A stretch of 51,760 bases of DNA, taken from positions 1 through 51,760 of IMG/VR virus record IMGVR_UViG_3300024423_000004; one strand, given 5' to 3'. The first letter of the stretch is position 1. Every line of letters starts with the position of its first letter. This document shows positions 30,015 through 50,266 of this stretch, one piece after another. The notes beneath the pieces were generated by a model. That model did not search any database and was not told the DNA's origin. It saw only the letters and a list, made by a program, of their open reading frames with translations. A program made the position numbers and the translations under genes. The DNA comes from a virus. Its lineage: Duplodnaviria > Caudoviricetes.

Positions 30015-30671
30015 TTATTCATAAATTAAATTTACTTTAGCATAATCAATATCAGCTGGTCTTTTTTTATTCCAATGTATAATATAAGGCAAGTCTTCAT
30101 TAGTTGTTATTATAACTGGATTACCATTTTTAGAACCGTTGAAACTAGTATAGTGCATAATAGAATTGTAGTTATAAGGCAAACTTTCTTCTTCATATAG
30201 AGGATTATCAAATAATTCAAAATTGTGTTCAAAATTAACTATCATATTTTCTGGATAAATCTCAACATATTCGTCTCTGTCAGGTCGTTGATGTTCATGT
30301 ATAAGACCTAGAACATGACCGAGTTCATGCAAGATTACGCTGAAATATCCCACTTCGATAAAAGTCATTTCGGAGTCTTTGTGTTGTCCGAGTATAGCAT
30401 GTGGTCGATACAAATCATCAATAAGGGGCGCTTTTCCTATTTTACAGATATACTGTTCAATTCCACTTGCCTCTATAAATTCAACTATAGTACCGTCTTC
30501 CCAGATATCCATAGCTTTACGGACAACATCTTGTTCGCTATCTGAAACTTCATCACGAAATTGATAATAAACAATTCCATTCTCCCATTTTTGTATAATA
30601 CTATCATCTTCTTGTTCAAAATTACAGCCAATAAGAAAAAAAATTAAAAATAAAATACTTAATTTTTTCAT
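30015..30671 (-). CDS. Astacin-family (M12A) zinc metalloprotease, predicted lipoprotein
   Basis: HELGHVLGLIHEHQRPDRD zinc motif, SIMHY Met-turn, signal peptide MKKLSILFLIFFLIG-C. Confidence 0.9.
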   Translation of the reverse strand: MKKLSILFLIFFLIGCNFEQEDDSIIQKWENGIVYYQFRDEVSDSEQDVVRKAMDIWEDGTIVEFIEASGIEQYICKIGKAPLIDDLYRPHAILGQHKDSEMTFIEVGYFSVILHELGHVLGLIHEHQRPDRDEYVEIYPENMIVNFEHNFELFDNPLYEEESLPYNYNSIMHYTSFNGSKNGNPVIITTNEDLPYIIHWNKKRPADIDYAKVNLIYE

Positions 30672-30910
30672 TTTGTGTACCTCTTTTTATAAATTATAAA
30701 ATACGTATGTCCTTCTTCACAAATTTCTTTTATTGCATGTTTTTCATTTAATAAAAAATCAGTAATTATTTTTTCTTTTGCTTTTATCAAATTACCATAA
30801 TATTTTACTGCCATAAGAGTTAGTCTATTATGAAGGTAAGGGAAATTTATCCAAAAATCACTAATTTTTTTACCATTTTTTATTGTTAATAAAATATTTT
30901 TGATTTCCAT
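30668..30910 (-). CDS. Hypothetical protein
   Basis: GAGG RBS; coupled to the astacin gene. Confidence 0.6.
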   Translation of the reverse strand: MEIKNILLTIKNGKKISDFWINFPYLHNRLTLMAVKYYGNLIKAKEKIITDFLLNEKHAIKEICEEGHTYFIIYKKRYTK

Positions 30911-30921
30911 TTTATTTCCTC

Positions 30922-31599
30922 CTATTCAAGATTAAGTATTAATTTTTCTTTGATAGGTATTATTAATTCAATTATTTTATCTTTAAATGAATTTGCATAT
31001 TTGTGGCTTTTGCCTTGTTGCCTTGCATGATCATAAAAGCAAATTTTATTTTTAAGGGCCTCTATAGCAAGCTGTTTATAATGTAAATCTATTTCTTCAA
31101 AAGATTCAACGAATTTAATTATTTCAGAAAATAAATATTCCAGTTGTTCAAATTTTATAAATTTTTCTTCTTCAGAAATTTCTTCTTTAATTTGTTTATA
31201 TAGATTCATAATTTGTTCTTTTTCACATGAGCTATATTCGGTATTGCATTGTTTGCATTGTTTATTTCTTCTGTCATATGCAACAACAACATTACACTCT
31301 GGACAGTATTTTATTAATCTTTGAGAACAAATTGATCTATAATAATCAAGTATTGCCCCTTTTCCTCTTCTAACACAAAAAGCAACGGGATCTCCTATAT
31401 CTATTTTAGCCCTAAAAATAGCATTAAAGCAAGCGAACATATATTCTGCTTTAAGTTCATCCTGTGAAAAAAGATAATTTTCAATTTTGTGAGGTACATA
31501 CCTTCTTTCAAATTCAGAAAGGATTATCTTTTCTTCCATTAATTTGGAATTGCCTTCCTGGATTTTTTTGATAATTGAATTGAATTGATTGTTTGACAT
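30922..31599 (-). CDS. Sigma-factor-like protein (region 2) with a zinc ribbon
   Basis: IKKIQEGN, QDELKAEYM.A.FNAI and F..RRGKGAILDYYR resemble sigma regions 1.2-2.4; CPEC..CKQC follows. Confidence 0.62.
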   Translation of the reverse strand: MSNNQFNSIIKKIQEGNSKLMEEKIILSEFERRYVPHKIENYLFSQDELKAEYMFACFNAIFRAKIDIGDPVAFCVRRGKGAILDYYRSICSQRLIKYCPECNVVVAYDRRNKQCKQCNTEYSSCEKEQIMNLYKQIKEEISEEEKFIKFEQLEYLFSEIIKFVESFEEIDLHYKQLAIEALKNKICFYDHARQQGKSHKYANSFKDKIIELIIPIKEKLILNLE

Positions 31600-31848
31600 T
31601 TATTTGTCACTCCTTTTTAATAAATTATTTTTAAATATTATAAGATTATTAGGTGTTATTAAATGCACTTTATATTTATATTTTTGTACAATATCACATA
31701 TTATAGAATAGGGTAATTCTAAAGTATCCTTTTTAAGGTAAAAATTAATTAACCCAGATGATATATTAGAATTATTTTCTTTTTTCTTTAGAAAAAATTT
31801 CACTTCATCACGTAAGACTAAATTTAATTCTTCTATTATGTTTATCAT
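31600..31848 (-). CDS. Hypothetical protein
   Basis: GGGGAG RBS; 82 aa. Confidence 0.6.
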   Translation of the reverse strand: MINIIEELNLVLRDEVKFFLKKKENNSNISSGLINFYLKKDTLELPYSIICDIVQKYKYKVHLITPNNLIIFKNNLLKRSDK

Positions 31849-31866
31849 GTTTTATACTCCCCTTTT

Positions 31867-31896
31867 AAAAAACAGGGCACAATTATTTGTGCCTCT
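31867..31896 (-). terminator. Intrinsic terminator/attenuator within the leftward operon
   Basis: Minus strand reads GGCACAA-ATAA-TTGTGCC then CTGTTTTTT. Confidence 0.65.
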
Positions 31897-31901
31897 TTAT
31901 T

Positions 31902-32180
31902 TTAGTGTTGAAATTTTAATCCCTTAGCAGTTAGAATAATAGGTTTTCCAATTACCCTCTTGATAAGTTTACATTTTTCAAGGAAAGTTAAATCTTTCCG
32001 GATATTTCTAAATTGATTTTCTTCATTTTCACCTGCATAAGATTTACATTTAGTACCAAATAAATGTGCAAGTGAATTTTTAGTAAATTCTCCGGAGTGT
32101 TCTTTTAAAAAATCAAGAAGTTCATACCTTCTTGCCTGACAATTTTTATTCAGGGTTTTAAATCTATCTATCTTTTCCAT
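31902..32180 (-). CDS. Winged-helix DNA-binding protein
   Basis: RRYELLDFL...T..SLA..F...IRKDL..LE...LI...LT.KG pattern; AAGGAGG RBS. Confidence 0.65.
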   Translation of the reverse strand: MEKIDRFKTLNKNCQARRYELLDFLKEHSGEFTKNSLAHLFGTKCKSYAGENEENQFRNIRKDLTFLEKCKLIKRVIGKPIILTAKGLKFQH

Positions 32181-32212
32181 TGTGGGACCTCCTTAGGTCG
32201 TATAATTTTTTT

Positions 32213-32270
32213 GGCTTATCTCATCAGCGCCAGTAAGCCATTTCTGACGGAAGCCCGAAGGCTTTTCGAT
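32213..32270 (-). ncRNA. Type II hammerhead ribozyme with a loop I / 3' tail pseudoknot
   Basis: Minus strand: AUC GAAA AGCC UUCG GGCU UC^ CGUCAG AAAUGGCUUA CUGGCG CUGAUGA GAU AAGCC; complete catalytic core and stems I-III. Confidence 0.9.
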
Positions 32271-32422
32271 TATTCTTCTTCTCTTCCAAATAGAATTTGA
32301 TATTGAGATATTATTTCTTTATCTGTCATATATTCTAAATCTTCTTGAGTAAAAGCACTCTCTTCTATTAATGCACTTCCTTTTAAAATTACGTCTTCAT
32401 TAACATGATTTTCAAATTTCAT
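32270..32422 (-). CDS. 50-aa acidic hypothetical protein (MKFENHVNED...GREEE)
   Basis: TGATG coupling with the upstream ORF; stop codon abuts the ribozyme. Confidence 0.6.
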   Translation of the reverse strand: MKFENHVNEDVILKGSALIEESAFTQEDLEYMTDKEIISQYQILFGREEE

Positions 32423-32604
32423 CATATTATTAACCAATATAATTCGTATCTTGCTTGTCTAATTTCTTTTAATTCTTCTTCTAAAGAATCCACTTGAAAA
32501 GTATTTGCTTTGTATAATTTGCAAAGGATTGCTTTTTCTAAAAGTGCAAGGGGTTTATCTTTTGCTTGATATATTTTTTGTTGTATTCTACTTAATTTTC
32601 TCAT
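32422..32604 (-). CDS. Hypothetical protein, first gene of the leftward operon
   Basis: GGAGG RBS, just downstream of the consensus promoter. Confidence 0.7.
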   Translation of the reverse strand: MRKLSRIQQKIYQAKDKPLALLEKAILCKLYKANTFQVDSLEEELKEIRQARYELYWLII

Positions 32605-33094: not shown

Positions 33095-33363
33095 AATTTG
33101 ATATCAAATAATAAATTCCTAAACAAATGTGTAGTAAATTCATGAAAGGATATTCTTTGTCCGATAATACATTAAAAACAATAACAAAAACAATAAAGAC
33201 TAAATCAAGTACATAATAATCAATTTTTAATCTATTATGGAAAGAGGGATAAAAGTATTTTCTGACAAAAATAATGTCTTGCGGGACGCTTTCATTTAAA
33301 ATTAAAAAAAGAAGAATACGAAAGAAATATGGGAAGAAAGAAATCTTTTGGTCGTACACGACC

Positions 33364-33390
33364 TAAGATATAAATAATTTTGTCCGATAT
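33364..33390 (+). promoter_or_regulatory. Sigma28-like promoter candidate
   Basis: TAAG-N15-TCCGATAT, about 22 nt upstream of ATG 33413. Confidence 0.45.
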
Positions 33391-33412
33391 AAAAATAAAT
33401 GTTGAGGTAAAC

Positions 33413-33586
33413 ATGGAAAAATCAAAAAATTATAAAAAAAGTAAATGCGTTGTTTGTGGAATTAAATTTAAACCTTGGAGATATGACCAAATTTGTTGTA
33501 AATATGAATGTTCAAGGAAGAAATCTCAAAAAGAAGCTTATGATAAAAGGAAACTTAAAGCAAATTTAAAATGTCCGATAAAATAA
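33413..33586 (+). CDS. Small Cys-rich zinc-finger protein
   Basis: CVVCG.KF.P....Q.CC..EC; GAGGT RBS before ATG 33413. Confidence 0.7.
   Translation: MEKSKNYKKSKCVVCGIKFKPWRYDQICCKYECSRKKSQKEAYDKRKLKANLKCPIK
33556..33581 (+). promoter_or_regulatory. Sigma28-like promoter candidate
   Basis: TAAA-N14-TCCGATAA, ending 7 nt before the tRNA-like 5' end. Confidence 0.5.
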
Positions 33587-33588
33587 TA

Positions 33589-34117
33589 GGCAAAGTGGTG
33601 GAATTGGTAAATGCACTGTCGTGGTTATCTTGGAGATATCATGTCCAAAAGATGGTTAGAAAAAGAAAAAATATTTGTGAAAGAAAATTATAAAATAATG
33701 GATTATAAAGATATTGCTAAAATATTAGGAAGAACTTGTAATTCAATTTATAAATATGTTTCAAGAAATTTAGAAGCACTGTCTAAAATGGAAATTGGCA
33801 AAAGAGGTTATAAAAATTCATCTATAAGCAGTAGAAATATGAAAAAAGAAAATAATCCATATTGGAAAGGTAATATTTCTAAAAATCATTATCACTATAA
33901 AAAATTACAAAAAGAAAGATATCCAGAAAGAATAAGAGCAAGAGAAAAAGTTTTTTATGCAATAAAATCAGGAAAACTTATAAAAAAACCTTGTGAAGAG
34001 TGTGGGGACCAGAATAGCCATGCTCATCATGAAAATTATTTAAATCCACTTGATGTAATATGGCTTTGTCCATTACATCATAGGCAAAGACACTGTTCAT
34101 GAATCCTGCCTTTGCCA
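33589..34117 (+). pseudogene. Interrupted tRNA (Leu-like): 5' part and 3' end flank an HNH ORF
   Basis: 5' GGCAAAG-TG-GTGGAATTGGTAAATGCAC (acceptor and D arm); 3' GAATCCTGC-CTTTGCC-A (T-loop end, T-stem strand, acceptor, discriminator). Anticodon not identifiable. Confidence 0.7.
33641..34102 (+). CDS. HNH-like endonuclease with N-terminal HTH and NUMOD-like motif
   Basis: W...E...IAKILGRT, ENNPYWKG and CEECG...HAHHENY.NPLDVIWLCPLHH motifs; GGAG RBS before ATG 33641. Confidence 0.78.
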   Translation: MSKRWLEKEKIFVKENYKIMDYKDIAKILGRTCNSIYKYVSRNLEALSKMEIGKRGYKNSSISSRNMKKENNPYWKGNISKNHYHYKKLQKERYPERIRAREKVFYAIKSGKLIKKPCEECGDQNSHAHHENYLNPLDVIWLCPLHHRQRHCS

Positions 34118-34119
34118 AT

Positions 34120-34205
34120 GGGGAAACTAGAAATTAAAGTTATGAAAGGTTTTATTGTATTCGGTGATTAAATATAATAGACAAATTGGAGTTTCTAGTT
34201 TCCTC
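34120..34205 (+). promoter_or_regulatory. Branched stem-loop upstream of purZ
   Basis: 16-bp stem 34120-34135/34190-34205 and inner 11-bp stem 34151-34161/34171-34181; deviations are G-U pairs. Confidence 0.6.
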
Positions 34206-34231
34206 TATTTTAAAATAAAAAAGGAAAGATT

Positions 34232-35314
34232 ATGGAAAAAGAAAAAAAAATTATTGATGTGATTGTAGGTTGTCAATTTGGGAGTGAAGCAAAAGGATTA
34301 GTTGCTTCTTATGTTGCTTCTATAGAAAAATATGATTGGCTAATTTCTGTAAATTCTGCACAAGCAGGTCATACAGCTCCTTATTGGAAAGAAGGGGAAA
34401 AAGAACCGGAGATGATAGTAACTAGACAATTGCCTAGTTCATGTATAACGGATTTTGAAGCAAAAATTTTTATTGGTCCAGGTGCTGTTATTAATCCTGA
34501 AGTTTTAGTAGAAGAAATTATTATGTTGGAAGAAAAGGGAATTCCTATTTGTGACAGGCTTTTCATTTCAGAGAATGCTACAATTGTTACAGAAGAAGAT
34601 ATAATAGCAGAATCTGTAAATAATTTAACTAATAGGTTAGGTAGTACAAATGAAGGTATTGGGTCAGCTCTTGCTATGAGGGCAATGAGAAAATCTCTTC
34701 AGATTAAAAATTCTTTTATTGATATTATAAAAAATTTGAAGTCTAAAGGATTAGAAAAATCTTTTACTTTAGTATCTGATTATTTTTCTGTTGATCATAT
34801 TTCAGGGAAGATTTTAATTGAAGGAAGTCAAGGTTATGGTCTTTCTATAATGAGTGGTTATTATCCATTTTGTACAAGTAGAGATACAACAACTGCAGCA
34901 TTTTTATCTTATGCACAATTATCACCTCTTGATGTAAGGGATGTTTATGGAGTCTATAGGACTTATCCCATTAGAGTAGGAGGCAATAGTGGACCAATGC
35001 ATGAAGAGATTGATTGGCCGATAATAGAAGGAAGATCAGGTTATAAAGATTTGGCTGAATTTACTACTGTAACAAAAAGAATGCGCAGAATAGGTGAATG
35101 GGATAACAATTTAGCCAAAAAGGCTACTATTGTAAATGGAGTGACAAAACCGATTCTTTGTTTTGCTAATTATTTAGACAAAAATGTAGAAAATGCATTA
35201 TGTTTGGATGAATTTCCCGAAGAAATATTACAAGAAATTGCAAAAAGAGCAGAATCAATTGGCCAGCCTTGGTTTGCTATTTCAACGAATAAACATGGAA
35301 ATTTTTTAACTTAA
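34232..35314 (+). CDS. purZ: PurZ/PurZ0-type succinylamino-deoxyadenylate synthetase (PurA paralogue)
   Basis: GCQFGSEAKG has Ser in place of the PurA catalytic Asp (GDEGKG); AGHT, GST..G.G, EGSQG, YPFCTSRD, RTYPIRVGGNSGP and TTVTKRMRR motifs. Confidence 0.85.
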   Translation: MEKEKKIIDVIVGCQFGSEAKGLVASYVASIEKYDWLISVNSAQAGHTAPYWKEGEKEPEMIVTRQLPSSCITDFEAKIFIGPGAVINPEVLVEEIIMLEEKGIPICDRLFISENATIVTEEDIIAESVNNLTNRLGSTNEGIGSALAMRAMRKSLQIKNSFIDIIKNLKSKGLEKSFTLVSDYFSVDHISGKILIEGSQGYGLSIMSGYYPFCTSRDTTTAAFLSYAQLSPLDVRDVYGVYRTYPIRVGGNSGPMHEEIDWPIIEGRSGYKDLAEFTTVTKRMRRIGEWDNNLAKKATIVNGVTKPILCFANYLDKNVENALCLDEFPEEILQEIAKRAESIGQPWFAISTNKHGNFLT

Positions 35315-36380: not shown

Positions 36381-38420
36381 ATGTCGAAAGAAATAGATAA
36401 TCTAAAGAATCTTGCGAAGCAAATAAATAAAGATTTTGGAGGTGGATCACTCATGCATTTGGGTGATTCTCCTAAAATTCTTGAAAATGAGGCAAAGAGG
36501 CAATCTTTTGGTTATAAATTGCTTGATGATGCTTCTGCAGGTGGTCTTTGTTATGGTAAAATTCATGAAATATTTGGCAATGAGGGAGATGGTAAAACTA
36601 CTTTAGCTTTATCTATTTTAGCAGAATGTCAAAGAAATGGAATGCAGGGTTATTATGTAGATGCAGAACATAAATTAAATTTGGAATATGCTAAGACTTT
36701 AGGGGTTGATGTTAGTAAATTATTAATTACACAACCTTCTCATGGAGAACATGCTTTAGATGTTATGAAGGATGTTTTTAATTCAAATTTAGTGAATATA
36801 TGTGTTGTTGATTCAGTGTCTTCTTTAACTCCTCTATCTATGATAAATGGAGAATTTACTGATGCTAATATGGGTGCACATGCAAGACTTATGTCTACAA
36901 TGTGTAGGGTATTAGTACCTATTTTAAATCAGAAGAATATTATTTTAATATTGATTAACCAAATTCGTTATAAATTGGGTGTAATGTTTGGTTGTTTTCA
37001 TTATAATACTCTTGTTAATTTTGCTGATGGTAAAAATATTCCTATTGGAAAAGTTGTAGATGAAAAAATTCAAGGTGATGTTTATTGCTTAAATGAAAAA
37101 ACTAATGAAATTGAAATAAAATCTATAGTAGATTGGCATGATAATGGGAAAATAGAAAATAAAGAAGATTTTATTCATATTCAAACAAATTCAATAGATG
37201 GTGGAAGTAGATTTGGTTTTACATGCACTCCTAATCATAAAATTTTAACTAATAAAGGATGGAAACAAGCAAAAAATATTAATTATGAAGATAAGCTTAT
37301 TTCTAAATATTTAGAAACTATTAATGGTACTTATGGTGATTTTTTAAGGGGAATATTAATTGGAGATAGTCATATATCTATTCGTGATCAAAACACAGGC
37401 TGTTTAAGATTTCAGGAGAATAAACAAGTTGAATATCTTAATTGGAAATTAAAAAAATTAAATCCATTTTTAAAATTTAAAAAAATTGATATTAATAATA
37501 GAGGGTATAGATATATTTCTAAATATACTTTTGAATGGTCAAAAATAAAAAAAATAATTGGTAATCGCAATCCGGAATATATGTTACAAAAATATTCTGA
37601 TTTATCTTTAGCAATTTGGATTATGGATGATGGACATTTTGATCAAAAAGGTGGTCATAGAAGATATAATATTTCTATAAAAAGATTTAAGAATGATGAT
37701 TTAAATTTACAAAATGTTGTAGATTTATTTCAAAAAAATGGATTAGATTGTAATTATAGAATATCAGATGGAAATATTAATTTTTCTACTGAAATGACAG
37801 ATATAATTGCTAAAAGAATTTGTAAATTTGTTCCAATTTGTATGCAATATAAACTTCCTGTAGAATATCATGAGAAATATCAAGAATTTAATTTAAGAAA
37901 TAAACCTATAGAAATAACTGAATTTGTAGAAATTAAGGAGATTCGGGGGGCTTCGAATAAGCAAATAAAAAATAAGCGTAAATTTGATATTTCTGTTCAA
38001 GATAATGAAAATTATATGGTTGGTGGAAAATATAATGGAATTATTGTACATAATTCGCCAGAGACAACTACTGGAGGACAAGCTATAAAATTTCACTCGA
38101 TAATGAGGATGAAGTTAACATCTACCAAATATTCAGACTCAGATAAATTGAAGAGGATGGTAAATGTTAATTTTATAAAACAGCAATCTGGTGGATTACC
38201 CTATACAAAAACGGGTTTACTCCTCAATATAGGAGAAGGTTTTGATAAGGGGTATGATTTAATTGAACATGGTATAAAAAAAGGAATACTTAAATTAAAT
38301 GGTTCTCAAGTAAAGATGGGTGATATTAGTATTGGACAAGGAAAATTAAAAGCTAGTCAAAATCTTCTAGAAGATAAGAAGTTGTTCGATAAATATGAGA
38401 AGTTATTAAAAGGAGTATAA
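36381..38420 (+). CDS. recA: RecA recombinase containing an intein
   Basis: EIFGNEGDGKTTL, DAEH, VVDSV, ARLMS, INQIR.K.GVMFG|intein|SPETTTGG.A.KF. Confidence 0.95.
   Translation: MSKEIDNLKNLAKQINKDFGGGSLMHLGDSPKILENEAKRQSFGYKLLDDASAGGLCYGKIHEIFGNEGDGKTTLALSILAECQRNGMQGYYVDAEHKLNLEYAKTLGVDVSKLLITQPSHGEHALDVMKDVFNSNLVNICVVDSVSSLTPLSMINGEFTDANMGAHARLMSTMCRVLVPILNQKNIILILINQIRYKLGVMFGCFHYNTLVNFADGKNIPIGKVVDEKIQGDVYCLNEKTNEIEIKSIVDWHDNGKIENKEDFIHIQTNSIDGGSRFGFTCTPNHKILTNKGWKQAKNINYEDKLISKYLETINGTYGDFLRGILIGDSHISIRDQNTGCLRFQENKQVEYLNWKLKKLNPFLKFKKIDINNRGYRYISKYTFEWSKIKKIIGNRNPEYMLQKYSDLSLAIWIMDDGHFDQKGGHRRYNISIKRFKNDDLNLQNVVDLFQKNGLDCNYRISDGNINFSTEMTDIIAKRICKFVPICMQYKLPVEYHEKYQEFNLRNKPIEITEFVEIKEIRGASNKQIKNKRKFDISVQDNENYMVGGKYNGIIVHNSPETTTGGQAIKFHSIMRMKLTSTKYSDSDKLKRMVNVNFIKQQSGGLPYTKTGLLLNIGEGFDKGYDLIEHGIKKGILKLNGSQVKMGDISIGQGKLKASQNLLEDKKLFDKYEKLLKGV
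36993..38054 (+). mobile_element. Intein (354 aa) with LAGLIDADG homing endonuclease
   Basis: Begins CFHYNT, block B CTPNH, LRGILIGD and LAIWIMDDG motifs, ends IVHN followed by Ser. Confidence 0.95.
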
Positions 38421-49741: not shown

Positions 49742-50266
49742 ATGAATAAAAAAGAAGAAATATATGAAAAGATAGGTAATTTGCGGAAAGATTTTGAATT
49801 AGAAATTGATAAGATTCTTATTGCTATAGATGAGAATGAAGTAATACAGAAGAAAAAAAAAGAAAGGTGGAAGCCTAAAGAAGATGAAATTTATTGGTTT
49901 GTTGATGCAGATGGTGATATAACAGATGTACCATGGTACAATAGGCATTATCATGAATGGTGCTACAATCAAAGAAATTGTTTTAAAACAAGACAAGAGG
50001 TAGGGGAATATAAAAGATATTTAGAGATAGAAGCACAGATAAGGTATATTGCAGATGATTTGAATGAGGGGAGAAAAGTAAAGTGGGGAGAAAATCAGTG
50101 GCATTATAAAATATGGTATGATCATGAAGATGGAGAAATTAGTGATGTTAAAACTAAAGATGTGCAGACTCCAGAGATTTATTGTTTGAATGAAAAATTT
50201 AGAAATATATGTGTAGAGAGAATAGGCAAAGAAGACCTTAAATTTTATTTAACTTATGAGAGATAA
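49742..50266 (+). CDS. Hypothetical phage protein
   Basis: RWKP...E.YW...NCFKT..E pattern. Confidence 0.65.
   Translation: MNKKEEIYEKIGNLRKDFELEIDKILIAIDENEVIQKKKKERWKPKEDEIYWFVDADGDITDVPWYNRHYHEWCYNQRNCFKTRQEVGEYKRYLEIEAQIRYIADDLNEGRKVKWGENQWHYKIWYDHEDGEISDVKTKDVQTPEIYCLNEKFRNICVERIGKEDLKFYLTYER

Follow-up and report, generated by a model that had tools for sequence, protein, structure and literature searches.

An HNH endonuclease gene between the two ends of a tRNA-Leu-type gene in a deep-sea vent phage, a probable case of invasion

In the genome of a deep-sea vent phage, the whole 51,760 nt of which were analysed as the window, an intact HNH endonuclease gene is enclosed by the two ends of a tRNA-Leu-type gene. 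This arrangement was probably produced when a free-standing homing endonuclease gene invaded the phage tRNA-Leu-type gene and left it as a pseudogene. No tRNA can be rebuilt from the enclosing ends, and the arrangement is absent from the nearest relatives. The ancestor would have been a leucine-type (class II) tRNA gene, or alternatively a tRNA-shaped stable-RNA gene of the phage T5 kind, with a small zinc-ribbon gene upstream and purZ downstream. The middle of this gene may then have been taken over by a free-standing homing endonuclease gene, encoding an N-terminal helix-turn-helix (HTH) and a C-terminal HNH nuclease, and the insertion or the accompanying repair could have deleted the anticodon arm, the variable arm, and the 5' strand of the T stem, leaving flanks that would now be a pseudogene. 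The flanks look pristine, with a perfect 7-bp acceptor complement, either because little time has passed since the event or because the flanks are copied along with the endonuclease gene during homing. As a rule, homing endonuclease genes leave the host gene unharmed by residing in introns, in inteins, or between genes. A homing endonuclease gene directly within a tRNA-type gene, with both halves visible, would represent a clean natural footprint of the entry of such genes into phage tRNA regions, and the locus offers a candidate target site for the enzyme. A literature search, confined largely to main texts outside subscription journals, found no homing endonuclease gene nested in an intron-less tRNA gene.

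Anatomy of the locus

The features of the locus are as follows.

33380..33586, + strand, zinc-ribbon ORF, 68 aa; its stop TAA (33584-33586) is separated by 2 nt from the tRNA-like 5' part
33586..33595, + strand, direct repeat copy 1, ATAGGCAAAG; spans the 5' acceptor strand and 3 nt of flank
33589..33617, + strand, tRNA-Leu-type 5' part; tRNA positions 1-26 (acceptor strand, U8 G9, D arm)
33633..33636, + strand, ribosome-binding site GGAG, 4 nt before ATG 33641
33641..34102, + strand, HTH-HNH endonuclease gene, 153 aa; stop TGA 34100-34102
34080..34089, + strand, direct repeat copy 2, ATAGGCAAAG; inside the stretch that encodes HRQR in the HNH motif
34096..34109, + strand, T-loop remnant TTCATGAAT (2 extra bases) and 3' strand of the T stem, CCTGC
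34110..34117, + strand, 3' acceptor strand CTTTGCC and discriminator A; no CCA encoded
34232..35314, + strand, purZ-type adenylosuccinate synthetase homologue; next gene downstream

Reading of the sequence confirmed the earlier description of Leu-like halves with perfectly complementary 7-bp acceptor strands, GGCAAAG (33589-33595) and CTTTGCC (34110-34116), which match at 7/7 positions with 514 nt between them. Such a perfect complement would also be expected of a functional stem, which counts against a pseudogene. The 5' acceptor strand is followed by T8 and G9 and then, at 33598-33616, by a D arm composed of GTGG, AATTGGTAAAT, and GCAC, the stem of which has three Watson-Crick pairs and a 13-22 G/G mismatch. 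The 3-bp stem and the long loop containing GG are those of a class II D arm. The earlier note had placed the 5' part at 33589-33620; the Leu-type start is real, but the tRNA likeness already ends at 33616/33617. On the 3' side, GTTCATGAATCC occupies 34095-34106 and CCTGC occupies 34105-34109. The T-loop remnant has two bases more than TTCGAATCC, giving a loop of nine bases versus seven, and CCTGC takes its place in the canonical 7/5 tRNA layout. The A at 34117, directly after the 7-bp acceptor stem, corresponds to A73; a discriminator A73 is typical of tRNA-Leu as an identity rule. The class II D arm, the 3' strand of the T stem, and A73 share one strand and follow each other as they would in a tRNA.

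After 33617 or before 34096, no stems were found for an anticodon arm, a long variable arm, or a complete T arm. The parts missing from the tRNA-type gene are the anticodon arm, the variable arm, and the 5' strand of the T stem, the last of which had already been reported absent, and the remaining flanks correspond to tRNA positions 1-26 and 54-73. TGTC (33617-33620) and GACA (34089-34092), once proposed to pair as a stem closing the insert, are both present, but a 4-nt complement is uninformative.

The HNH gene likely starts at ATG 33641, which is preceded by GGAG, and not at ATG 33611. Its ORF occupies the gap except for about 24 nt, as had been noticed before, and the insert of ~480 nt is coding. 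The overlap of its TGA stop (34100-34102) with the T-loop remnant was likewise borne out: TGT TCA TGA, the two final sense codons with the stop, runs into the old T loop. The encoded protein matches PHROG 2340 "endonuclease" (E = 6e-18) and is one of a very large family of phage endonucleases, with 19,474 homologues at E <= 0.001; its N-terminal region gives HTH-type matches to PHROG 323, PHROG 14101, and, weakly, Pfam Sigma70_r4_2. The protein retains all 13 residues that are invariant across the family alignment, and the gene thus combines an intact HNH nuclease motif with a DNA-binding module. The protein is presumably a homing enzyme, the gene of which would have entered a gene that was then intact, and the surrounding remnant is probably without function. 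No paralogue of the HNH gene and no terminal repeat were found in the genome, a search for sequence relatives in the PDB at E up to 1 returned chance matches only, and a single-protein search of IMG/VR for HNH or PurZ relatives returned two distant ones and none that was close.

The C-terminal sequence HHRQRHCS is present in only 3/166 homologues, namely the window protein, P0123, and P0136, which are only 53-63% identical overall. This common end hints at a nucleotide-level constraint at the 3' junction, which would fit co-conversion by homing and also a functional RNA or DNA element. The direct repeat reported at 33586 and 34080 was recovered, lengthens to 12/13 matching bases when counted from 33583 and 34077, and has a third copy at 50222, absent from the earlier note, giving three copies in the genome versus 0.1 expected. 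With a second GGCAAAG at 34083, copy 2 places a second 5' acceptor strand within the HNH motif, which is essential, and only 20 nt separate it from the 3' acceptor strand; the local pairing with 34110-34116 suggested earlier is possible. Simple insertion does not explain the second copy of ATAGGCAAAG in the HNH motif, an observation that counts against the pseudogene interpretation.

Detection of the tRNA-like parts and comparison with relatives

In the 51,760-nt genome, the + strand contains CTTTGCC at just two sites (expected 0.009 per kb), and a Leu-type 5' motif with its complement within 1 kb was found in none of 300 first-order Markov copies of the window, which rules out chance for the composite of both halves. 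A profile built from the 5' ends of 14 phage class II tRNA-Leu ranked 33589-33616 first in the genome (E = 0.14, 9.4 bits), and the matching 3' profile did not find 34096-34117. Because each half alone is weak, the evidence lies in their combination and not in a single half. In the covariance models each half alone scored at Rfam background; the composite is non-random in view of the simulated windows.

A tRNA was defined as an ARAGORN cloverleaf or a match to Rfam RF00005 of at least 29 bits, and the locus yielded neither. ARAGORN called no tRNA in the whole window with or without intron mode, nor with introns of up to 700 or 1000 nt allowed. When the halves were joined in silico, 0/2379 joins were called, and therefore no tRNA can be rebuilt from the flanks. 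Rfam gave nothing at gathering thresholds, no tRNA or intron family in 33200-34500 at E up to 10, and still no match when the 5' part was placed flush at the end of the stretch. A group I intron in a tRNA gene was considered and rejected, as Intron_gpI gave no match at E up to 10 and the intron mode of ARAGORN found nothing; the earlier remark that the gap is too small for the core of a group I or II intron is a reasonable one. ARAGORN detected no other tRNA in the genome, so that a tRNA gene at the purZ locus would be an isolated case, a point against the invasion reading.

The purZ homologue downstream (Pfam PF00709, E = 6.7e-45) has relatives in phages that are annotated PurZ or PurA-like. 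The upstream zinc-ribbon ORF weakly matches NinG/Rap N-termini (Pfam E = 0.0019; PHROG 171 E = 0.00068), and no homologue of it was found in 78 purZ loci. In the full records of the four nearest purZ phages, the HNH gene is absent (0/4), no tRNA is found in the purZ neighbourhood, and no tRNA-like element lies at the purZ locus, where the earlier note had proposed to look for an intact tRNA. In locus L002, a different gene precedes purZ with no HNH gene between them. Because the nearest relatives are distant (PurZ 51-59% identical), absence from them is weak evidence for a recent gain. The idea that a tRNA was destroyed by a homing endonuclease fits these results, with the HNH gene intact, its absence from the four relatives, and parts that cannot be joined.

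No uninterrupted allele was found in any of the searches carried out, which also weighs against the invasion reading. Both tRNA-like parts gave only 14-nt chance matches by blastn-short against 79 loci, 33300-34400 had no blastn match in GenBank phages, and the exact 28-nt 5' part was not found in IMG/VR. The acceptor-plus-T-stem pattern matched once in 185,579 species genomes, at a site that is not a tRNA, and the single match of a 21-nt 5' part in JGI metagenomes is attributed to chance because it lies inside a GTPase ORF. DNA contigs from four sequencing runs, three of which may be the source of the contig, carry the identical sequence with no joints and no HNH-less form.

One relative with a PurZ 53% identical (G002) carries, elsewhere in its genome, a 94-nt Leu-like element that has no anticodon. 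Its T arm, GCAGG-TTCGAAT-CCTGC, contains exactly the T-stem strand that is absent from the window. The 3' remnant of the window is identical to this T arm at 13/15 bases, versus at most 10/15 for the 14 phage tRNA-Leu, and 20 of the 29 bases of the 5' part are identical to the element, in which a variable insert starts directly after the D stem (position 26).

Alternative readings of the enclosing ends

The earlier note had also envisaged a retained tRNA mimic, that is, a functional shell cut by host tRNA-processing enzymes, RNase P at 33589 and a 3' nuclease at 34117, which would release or stabilise the HNH mRNA and set the start of the purZ message. If functional, such a shell would be a new phage route of mRNA processing, and nothing found supports it; we consider it unlikely. 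In its favor are the 7-bp acceptor complement, perfect across 514 nt, the intact D arm with GG in the loop, the HHRQRHCS end common to 3/166 homologues, and the many tRNA-shaped RNAs with non-tRNA inserts in phage tRNA arrays. When the RNA was folded as if cut exactly at 33589 and 34117, the long-range stem reached pairing probabilities of 0.55-0.99 and was 3.2 kcal/mol better than the local-hairpin fold, but presetting the ends favors the long-range stem, which would face local competition from the second GGCAAAG at 34083. The acceptor/T-arm stack, the feature read by RNase P and RNase Z, cannot form at the locus because the T stem lacks its 5' strand and the T loop is nine bases long. Moreover, no such element is present at purZ in the four relatives, no terminator-like site was found around the element, and the promoter search there gave no strong candidate and only a weak promoter-like site at 34112-34140.

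Alternatively, the locus could be an insert-bearing tRNA-shaped RNA gene, of the T5 RNA1 type or like the "enigmatic" phage tRNA introns, in which a mobile insert with its own endonuclease sits between the D and T arms; the probability of this is low. This reading would tie the locus to a large family of Leu-like, anticodon-less, tRNA-shaped scaffold RNAs that are very common in the phage tRNA arrays of IMG/VR contigs. The family has no Rfam entry and, to our knowledge, no known job; among described RNAs, phage T5 RNA1 is the nearest to it. Its inserts are non-coding, measure 85-145 nt, and start after the D arm, with the full T arm retained. In 3/96 of these RNAs the insert contains a whole tRNA, and ARAGORN in intron mode made four calls on the 96, three of which are nested tRNAs. 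Two scaffold RNAs had no blastn match in GenBank phages, and the literature, covered to the extent given above, held no description of the family. A link between HNH genes and scaffold RNAs was examined and rejected, as only 2/96 have an HNH gene within 500 nt and both are the loci that led to the family; close relatives of the HNH proteins of L092 and L161 were found in IMG/VR only on the same contigs.

The window locus and the G002 element may be degenerate members of this family. The tRNA likeness in the window stops at position 26, and the insert of the G002 element, like that of 85 scaffold RNAs in an alignment, starts at this position. Mobile introns usually occur with and without endonuclease ORFs, a pattern that would suit an insert of this kind, as would the unexplained introns of Lak megaphage tRNAs, one of which possibly encodes a tRNA (PMC6784885). 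However, the 3' boundary differs, since the complete T arm of the scaffold RNAs is not retained in the window; the 5' profile of the family scores the window at only E = 6.7, and its 3' profile finds nothing at 34096-34117. The T-stem strand of the window follows the canonical 7/5 layout and not the 6-bp T stem with a TGCAAAT loop of the family, the genome has no tRNA array, and no ribozyme or intron family was matched in Rfam at E up to 10. We also know of no splicing mechanism for such inserts. On a further and rather improbable proposal, the HNH gene would be carried by a mobile insert that resides in phage Leu-type tRNA-shaped RNA genes, the paired ends of which could allow host tRNA-processing enzymes to free the insert or could serve the element in target recognition. 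Such an insert would be an endonuclease-bearing version of the Lak tRNA "introns" or of the T5-RNA1-like scaffold inserts and, if this were true, an orphan phage RNA class would be linked to a homing mechanism.

Rearrangement of a tandem unit is very unlikely. It supposes an HNH gene upstream of, and overlapping, the start of a Leu-like gene, with a duplication and internal deletions yielding the order 5' part, HNH gene, truncated second copy; the second ATAGGCAAAG would then be the start of the second copy. In L092 and L161 a Leu-like element does directly follow an HNH-type gene, at distances of 22 nt and about 20 nt, respectively, the stop codon of such a gene abuts the element in L166, T5 hegC is annotated as overlapping tRNA-Ser2 by 14 nt, and the repeat contains 3 nt of 5' flank and matches at 12/13 bases. 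However, the codon for the last histidine of the HNH motif lies beyond the repeat, so that this essential codon would have to have been restored fortuitously at the deletion junction, the duplication spans only 10-13 nt, and the adjacency of HNH genes in the scaffold family is limited to the two discovery loci among 96. Chance resemblance, or a phage attachment site with tRNA fragments, can be practically dismissed, for even though each half alone is at Rfam background and the 3' profile misses its half, the composite arose in 0/300 simulated windows, no tyrosine integrase (PF00589) was matched in the genome, which makes an attachment-site origin unlikely, and the 5' part is present too, where an attachment site would carry the tRNA 3' part only.

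Comparison with known systems

Taken as an invaded tRNA-Leu-type gene, the locus can be set beside several known arrangements. T5 RNA1 (NC_005859 30501-30644), annotated "tRNA-like stable RNA with unknown functions", and the scaffold RNAs share with the window a Leu-type 5' module (acceptor strand, TG, and a D arm with a AATTGGTAGAC-like loop), a complementary 3' acceptor strand, and a non-tRNA insert beginning after the D arm. They possess a full T arm and a non-coding insert of 85-145 nt and reside in a tRNA array, whereas the window has no complete T arm, a coding insert of 480 nt, and no tRNA array, and its score against the family profile is poor. The T5 genes hegC and hegD (NC_005859) are HNH endonuclease genes annotated among phage tRNA and tRNA-like genes, and the coding sequence of hegC enters tRNA-Ser2 by the 14 nt mentioned above, giving the same order of a nuclease gene touching a class II tRNA gene. 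The comparison was made by annotation; the T5 tRNAs are whole with the nuclease genes between them, whereas in the window the nuclease gene lies inside and the middle of the tRNA is lost. T5 heg enzymes cut tRNA genes of related phages.

Bacterial tRNA-Leu genes can contain group I introns, with or without homing endonuclease ORFs, and likewise present a tRNA-Leu-type gene interrupted by a sequence able to carry an endonuclease gene. The window differs from them in that it has no Intron_gpI match, its ORF fills the gap but for about 24 nt, and its flanks are incomplete. T4 SegB is described as a free-standing GIY-YIG homing endonuclease in a phage tRNA cluster that drives the inheritance of the region (PMC2330249). 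It thus resembles the window, where the free-standing homing endonuclease in a phage tRNA region is a predicted one, but it belongs to another nuclease family and is intergenic, with the T4 tRNA genes intact. In the accessible text on Lak megaphages, tRNA genes are described with "enigmatic" introns of no known class, one insert of which may hold a tRNA, and no endonuclease ORF is reported there for these inserts (PMC6784885). The Lak flanks, as described in that text, give a complete tRNA once the insert is removed, in contrast to the flanks in the window, which do not.

Structure and setting of the split tRNA-type gene

Two parts of a Leu-type tRNA sequence enclose an HNH endonuclease gene; this observation is real, and all of the bases named in the earlier note were confirmed in the sequence. 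The features of the region and its operon are listed below.

33380-33586, + strand: 68-aa ORF whose sole resemblance is to the N-terminal zinc-ribbon part of NinG/Rap
33589-33617, + strand: class II tRNA positions 1-26, with acceptor strand GGCAAAG, U8, G9 and D arm
34096-34117, + strand: T loop, T-stem 3' strand CCTGC, acceptor strand CTTTGCC and A73
34232-35314, + strand: purZ-type adenylosuccinate synthetase homologue, the next gene downstream
36381-38420: RecA gene containing an intein that has a LAGLIDADG endonuclease domain

The D arm of the 5' part possesses a 3-bp stem, a G/G mismatch (13-22) and an 11-nt loop containing GG. The T loop carries two extra bases (TTCATGAAT), and the TGA of the HNH frame (34100-34102) falls within it. 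About 24 nt including a GGAG ribosome-binding site, followed by the 153-aa ORF from the ATG at 33641, separate the two tRNA parts, which have 45% G+C compared with 26% in the HNH ORF and 30% in the genome. Anticodon arm, variable arm and T-stem 5' strand are missing altogether, which rules out an ordinary anticodon-loop intron, and the Rfam group I intron model gave no match at E up to 10.

Each half is weak when taken alone. ARAGORN called no tRNA in the window with intron mode on or off, and Rfam gave no match at gathering thresholds. With E values up to 10 allowed, Rfam still returned nothing relevant, and setting the 5' part flush to the end of the searched stretch did not yield a tRNA either. 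With profiles built from the ends of 14 class II tRNA-Leu genes (ARAGORN calls in the fetched phage loci), 33589-33616 was the top match genome-wide for the 5' profile, yet with E = 0.14, and the 3' profile missed the 3' half. The joining of the halves proposed in the earlier note was carried out over 39 x 61 = 2379 cut-point pairs without a single ARAGORN call, relaxed threshold included; a tRNA cannot be rebuilt from the two parts. On the other hand, CTTTGCC occurs in only two + strand copies (expectation 0.009 per kb), one of them immediately after GAATCCTGC, 514 nt downstream of its complement, and the 5' motif with its complement within 1 kb was found in 0/300 Markov copies of the window. 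The combination of both halves is decisive against chance. Judged by the refuting condition of the earlier note, a background score of the halves in covariance models, the single halves fall short and the composite holds.

The genome of 51,760 bp (30% G+C) was rated complete by CheckV, and letter-identical DNA is contained in four hydrothermal vent metagenome runs, three of which may be its source. A rightward structural block (311 to 29711) is followed by a leftward block of small unknown genes (30015 to 32604), toward which a perfect sigma-70-type promoter drives (32673-32645, - strand; TTGACA-17-TATAAT with extended TG); the promoter scan found no rightward promoter of similar quality for the HNH/purZ operon. 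The rightward replication block begins at 33380 with the zinc-ribbon ORF, followed by the split gene, the purZ-type gene and later the RecA gene, the intein of which is a second selfish endonuclease within the operon of the HNH gene. The 68-aa ORF, which has no homologue among the 78 purZ loci, may represent either a gene that has been truncated or a zinc ribbon that stands alone. The presence of the purZ-type gene suggests that the genome contains 2-aminoadenine (Z); about 45 relatives of this gene, 45-59% identical, are encoded on contigs of about 50 kb. Immediately ahead of the purZ start codon, 34174-34234 weakly matches the Rfam DUF2815 RNA motif (E = 0.54; 20.8 bits, where the gathering score is 41.2), which is probably due to chance or merely the ribosome-binding region.

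The HNH ORF matches PHROG 2340 "endonuclease" (E = 6e-18); the PHROG search also gave matches of its N-terminal part to helix-turn-helix regulators. It contains 13/13 invariant columns in an alignment of 17 relatives. A search of 1.84 billion representative proteins gave 19,474 relatives at E <= 0.001, and the genome has no paralogue elsewhere. HNH genes of the same family lie just upstream of purZ in other, distant purZ phages (L051:3786-3983 and 1023-1436; L071:419-598), in L051 stopping a few bases short of purZ, and HNH genes may repeatedly have landed in the 5' flank of purZ.

Origin of the split gene

No close relative was found among GenBank phages, and 78 IMG/VR loci were fetched through PurZ-homologue alignment. 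The earlier note had proposed looking for an intact tRNA in related phages; in all four nearest loci (L002, L003, L004 and L015; PurZ 51-59% identical, gene after purZ in common) none was present near purZ, no trace of either tRNA part was found, and their records contain no HNH homologue anywhere. The record of L003, G002, has a single Rfam tRNA match, which ARAGORN rejects, 24 kb away from purZ, near thyX, with a lipase-like gene on one side and an unknown gene on the other.

L163:1501-1594 (record G002), - strand: Leu-like element, 94 nt, 30.3 bits

In the Infernal alignment, this element shows the start of a Leu-type D arm and is missing the anticodon arm, whereas its acceptor stem and its T arm (GCAGG-TTCGAAT-CCTGC) are both perfect. 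Its T arm is identical to the 3' remnant of the window at 13/15 bases, the two extra bases being the sole differences, compared with 10/15 for the best of the 14 phage tRNA-Leu genes; therefore, the phage group does have a Leu-type element with the strand missing in the window.

Of the two readings offered in the earlier note, a tRNA destroyed by a homing endonuclease is the likely one. A free-standing homing endonuclease gene would have destroyed a Leu-type tRNA or tRNA-shaped RNA gene by inserting into it, leaving the flanks as a pseudogene, and we regard this as reasonably probable; a dispensable tRNA-type gene would be a target needing no intron. The 10-nt repeat ATAGGCAAAG at 33586 and 34080 (12/13 bases when extended) is left unaccounted for by this explanation. 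The copy at 34080 places a second 5' acceptor strand within the HRQR codons of the HNH motif and only 20 nt away from the 3' strand, which is unlikely to be due to chance despite the genome-wide over-representation of GGCAAAG (10 copies against about 2 expected, mainly in coding frames). Also unaccounted for is the ending HHRQRHCS, shared by only 3/166 homologues, which are otherwise 53-63% identical. The repeat placement and this rare shared ending suggest that the 3' junction is kept as nucleotide sequence, as either co-conversion during homing or a functional hairpin or shell would do.

The other reading of the earlier note, a working processing shell, is unlikely: the acceptor stem is perfect and the fold is predicted to be favorable when the ends are supplied, but the T arm read by processing enzymes is missing and the four nearest relatives give no sign of conservation. 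The boldest reading that the data allow, an endonuclease-bearing insert within a scaffold RNA (a Leu-like tRNA-shaped RNA without anticodon and with a variable insert, found in phage contigs), is similarly unlikely. The window shares with these RNAs the 5' boundary, its tRNA likeness ending after the D stem; unlike them, it is without a complete T arm, the special T loop, a short non-coding insert and a tRNA-array setting. Because of these differences and a 5' profile match of only E = 6.7, it is not classed as a member of the family. A rearranged HNH-tRNA tandem unit would account for the repeat but requires a lucky junction, and is improbable. Chance or an attachment site is highly improbable, being disfavored by the Markov copies, by the rarity of CTTTGCC and by the lack of a tyrosine integrase (no PF00589 match in the genome). 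The locus shows a known phenomenon in an unusual arrangement and is only modestly interesting by itself.

Leu-type RNAs without an anticodon in phage contigs

The more interesting lead is the scaffold RNAs. Among 82 loci with HNH relatives, L092 and L161 have a Leu-type 5' part just past the HNH stop codon, with a perfectly complementary strand following 166-176 nt later; L166, a third such locus, turned up later. Neither ARAGORN nor Rfam calls elements of this type, and Rfam matched the element in 0/15 loci scanned. A pattern built from them matched at least 118 IMG/VR contigs (L171-L288), and in 96/118 of the matches listed the 7-base stretch preceding the D arm pairs 7/7 with the seven bases starting 4 nt after GCAAATCC, where chance would give about one such case. 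Covariation is strong: among 85 distinct aligned RNAs, pre-selected for 7/7 pairing (the unselected figure being that 96/118), many double changes occur at 6/7 acceptor pairs and 4/4 predicted T-stem pairs. The RNAs span 159-188 nt and consist of the acceptor stem, the Leu D arm, a highly variable insert of about 90-145 nt beginning directly after it, and then ATG and a T stem of 6 bp with the loop TGCAAAT. Examples are as follows.

L179:10145-10303, - strand: scaffold RNA
L180:2894-3072, + strand: scaffold RNA
L092:2741-2927, + strand: scaffold RNA
L166:2207-2376, + strand: scaffold RNA

Among the matches listed, 25/96 lie within 300 nt of a same-strand tRNA, and 3/96 hold a whole tRNA inside the insert (L260:401-583, L266:2945-3127 and L283:1681-1853), called tRNA-Ile GAT by ARAGORN in two of the three. 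An HNH gene lies within 500 nt in 2/96 of the matches listed; since both are the loci through which the family was found, the HNH link is an artefact of the discovery route. Other elements in these contigs include a type II hammerhead ribozyme (L179:13915-13980, 61.2 bits) and a drum RNA within a tRNA array (L180:2574-2692, 46 bits). In L161, a tyrosine integrase (524-1567) lies 1.2 kb upstream of the HNH gene, and the N-terminal part of the HNH ORF (about 2100-2200) resembles translated tRNA sequence, hinting at a tRNA fragment derived from an integration site; ARAGORN and Rfam make no call there.

Comparison with known systems

Phage tRNA regions are known haunts of homing endonuclease genes, as in T5 and in the T4 tRNA region harboring the homing endonuclease gene SegB (PMC2330249). 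In T5, RNA1 (NC_005859, 30501-30644), annotated as "tRNA-like stable RNA with unknown functions", combines a Leu-type D arm and a canonical T arm with an insert of about 85 nt, and sits among tRNA genes and HNH endonuclease genes. According to the T5 annotation, RNA1, RNAI and RNAIII are arranged head to tail next to tRNA-His, and the HNH gene hegC extends into tRNA-Ser2, with which it shares the first 14 nt of the tRNA gene (31022-31035). The window element is possibly derived from a T5-RNA1-like or G002-like element. For the scaffold family, the closest published parallel found is the Lak megaphage tRNAs, for which PMC6784885 describes "enigmatic introns", one possibly containing a tRNA; the scaffold RNAs with a nested tRNA recall this case.
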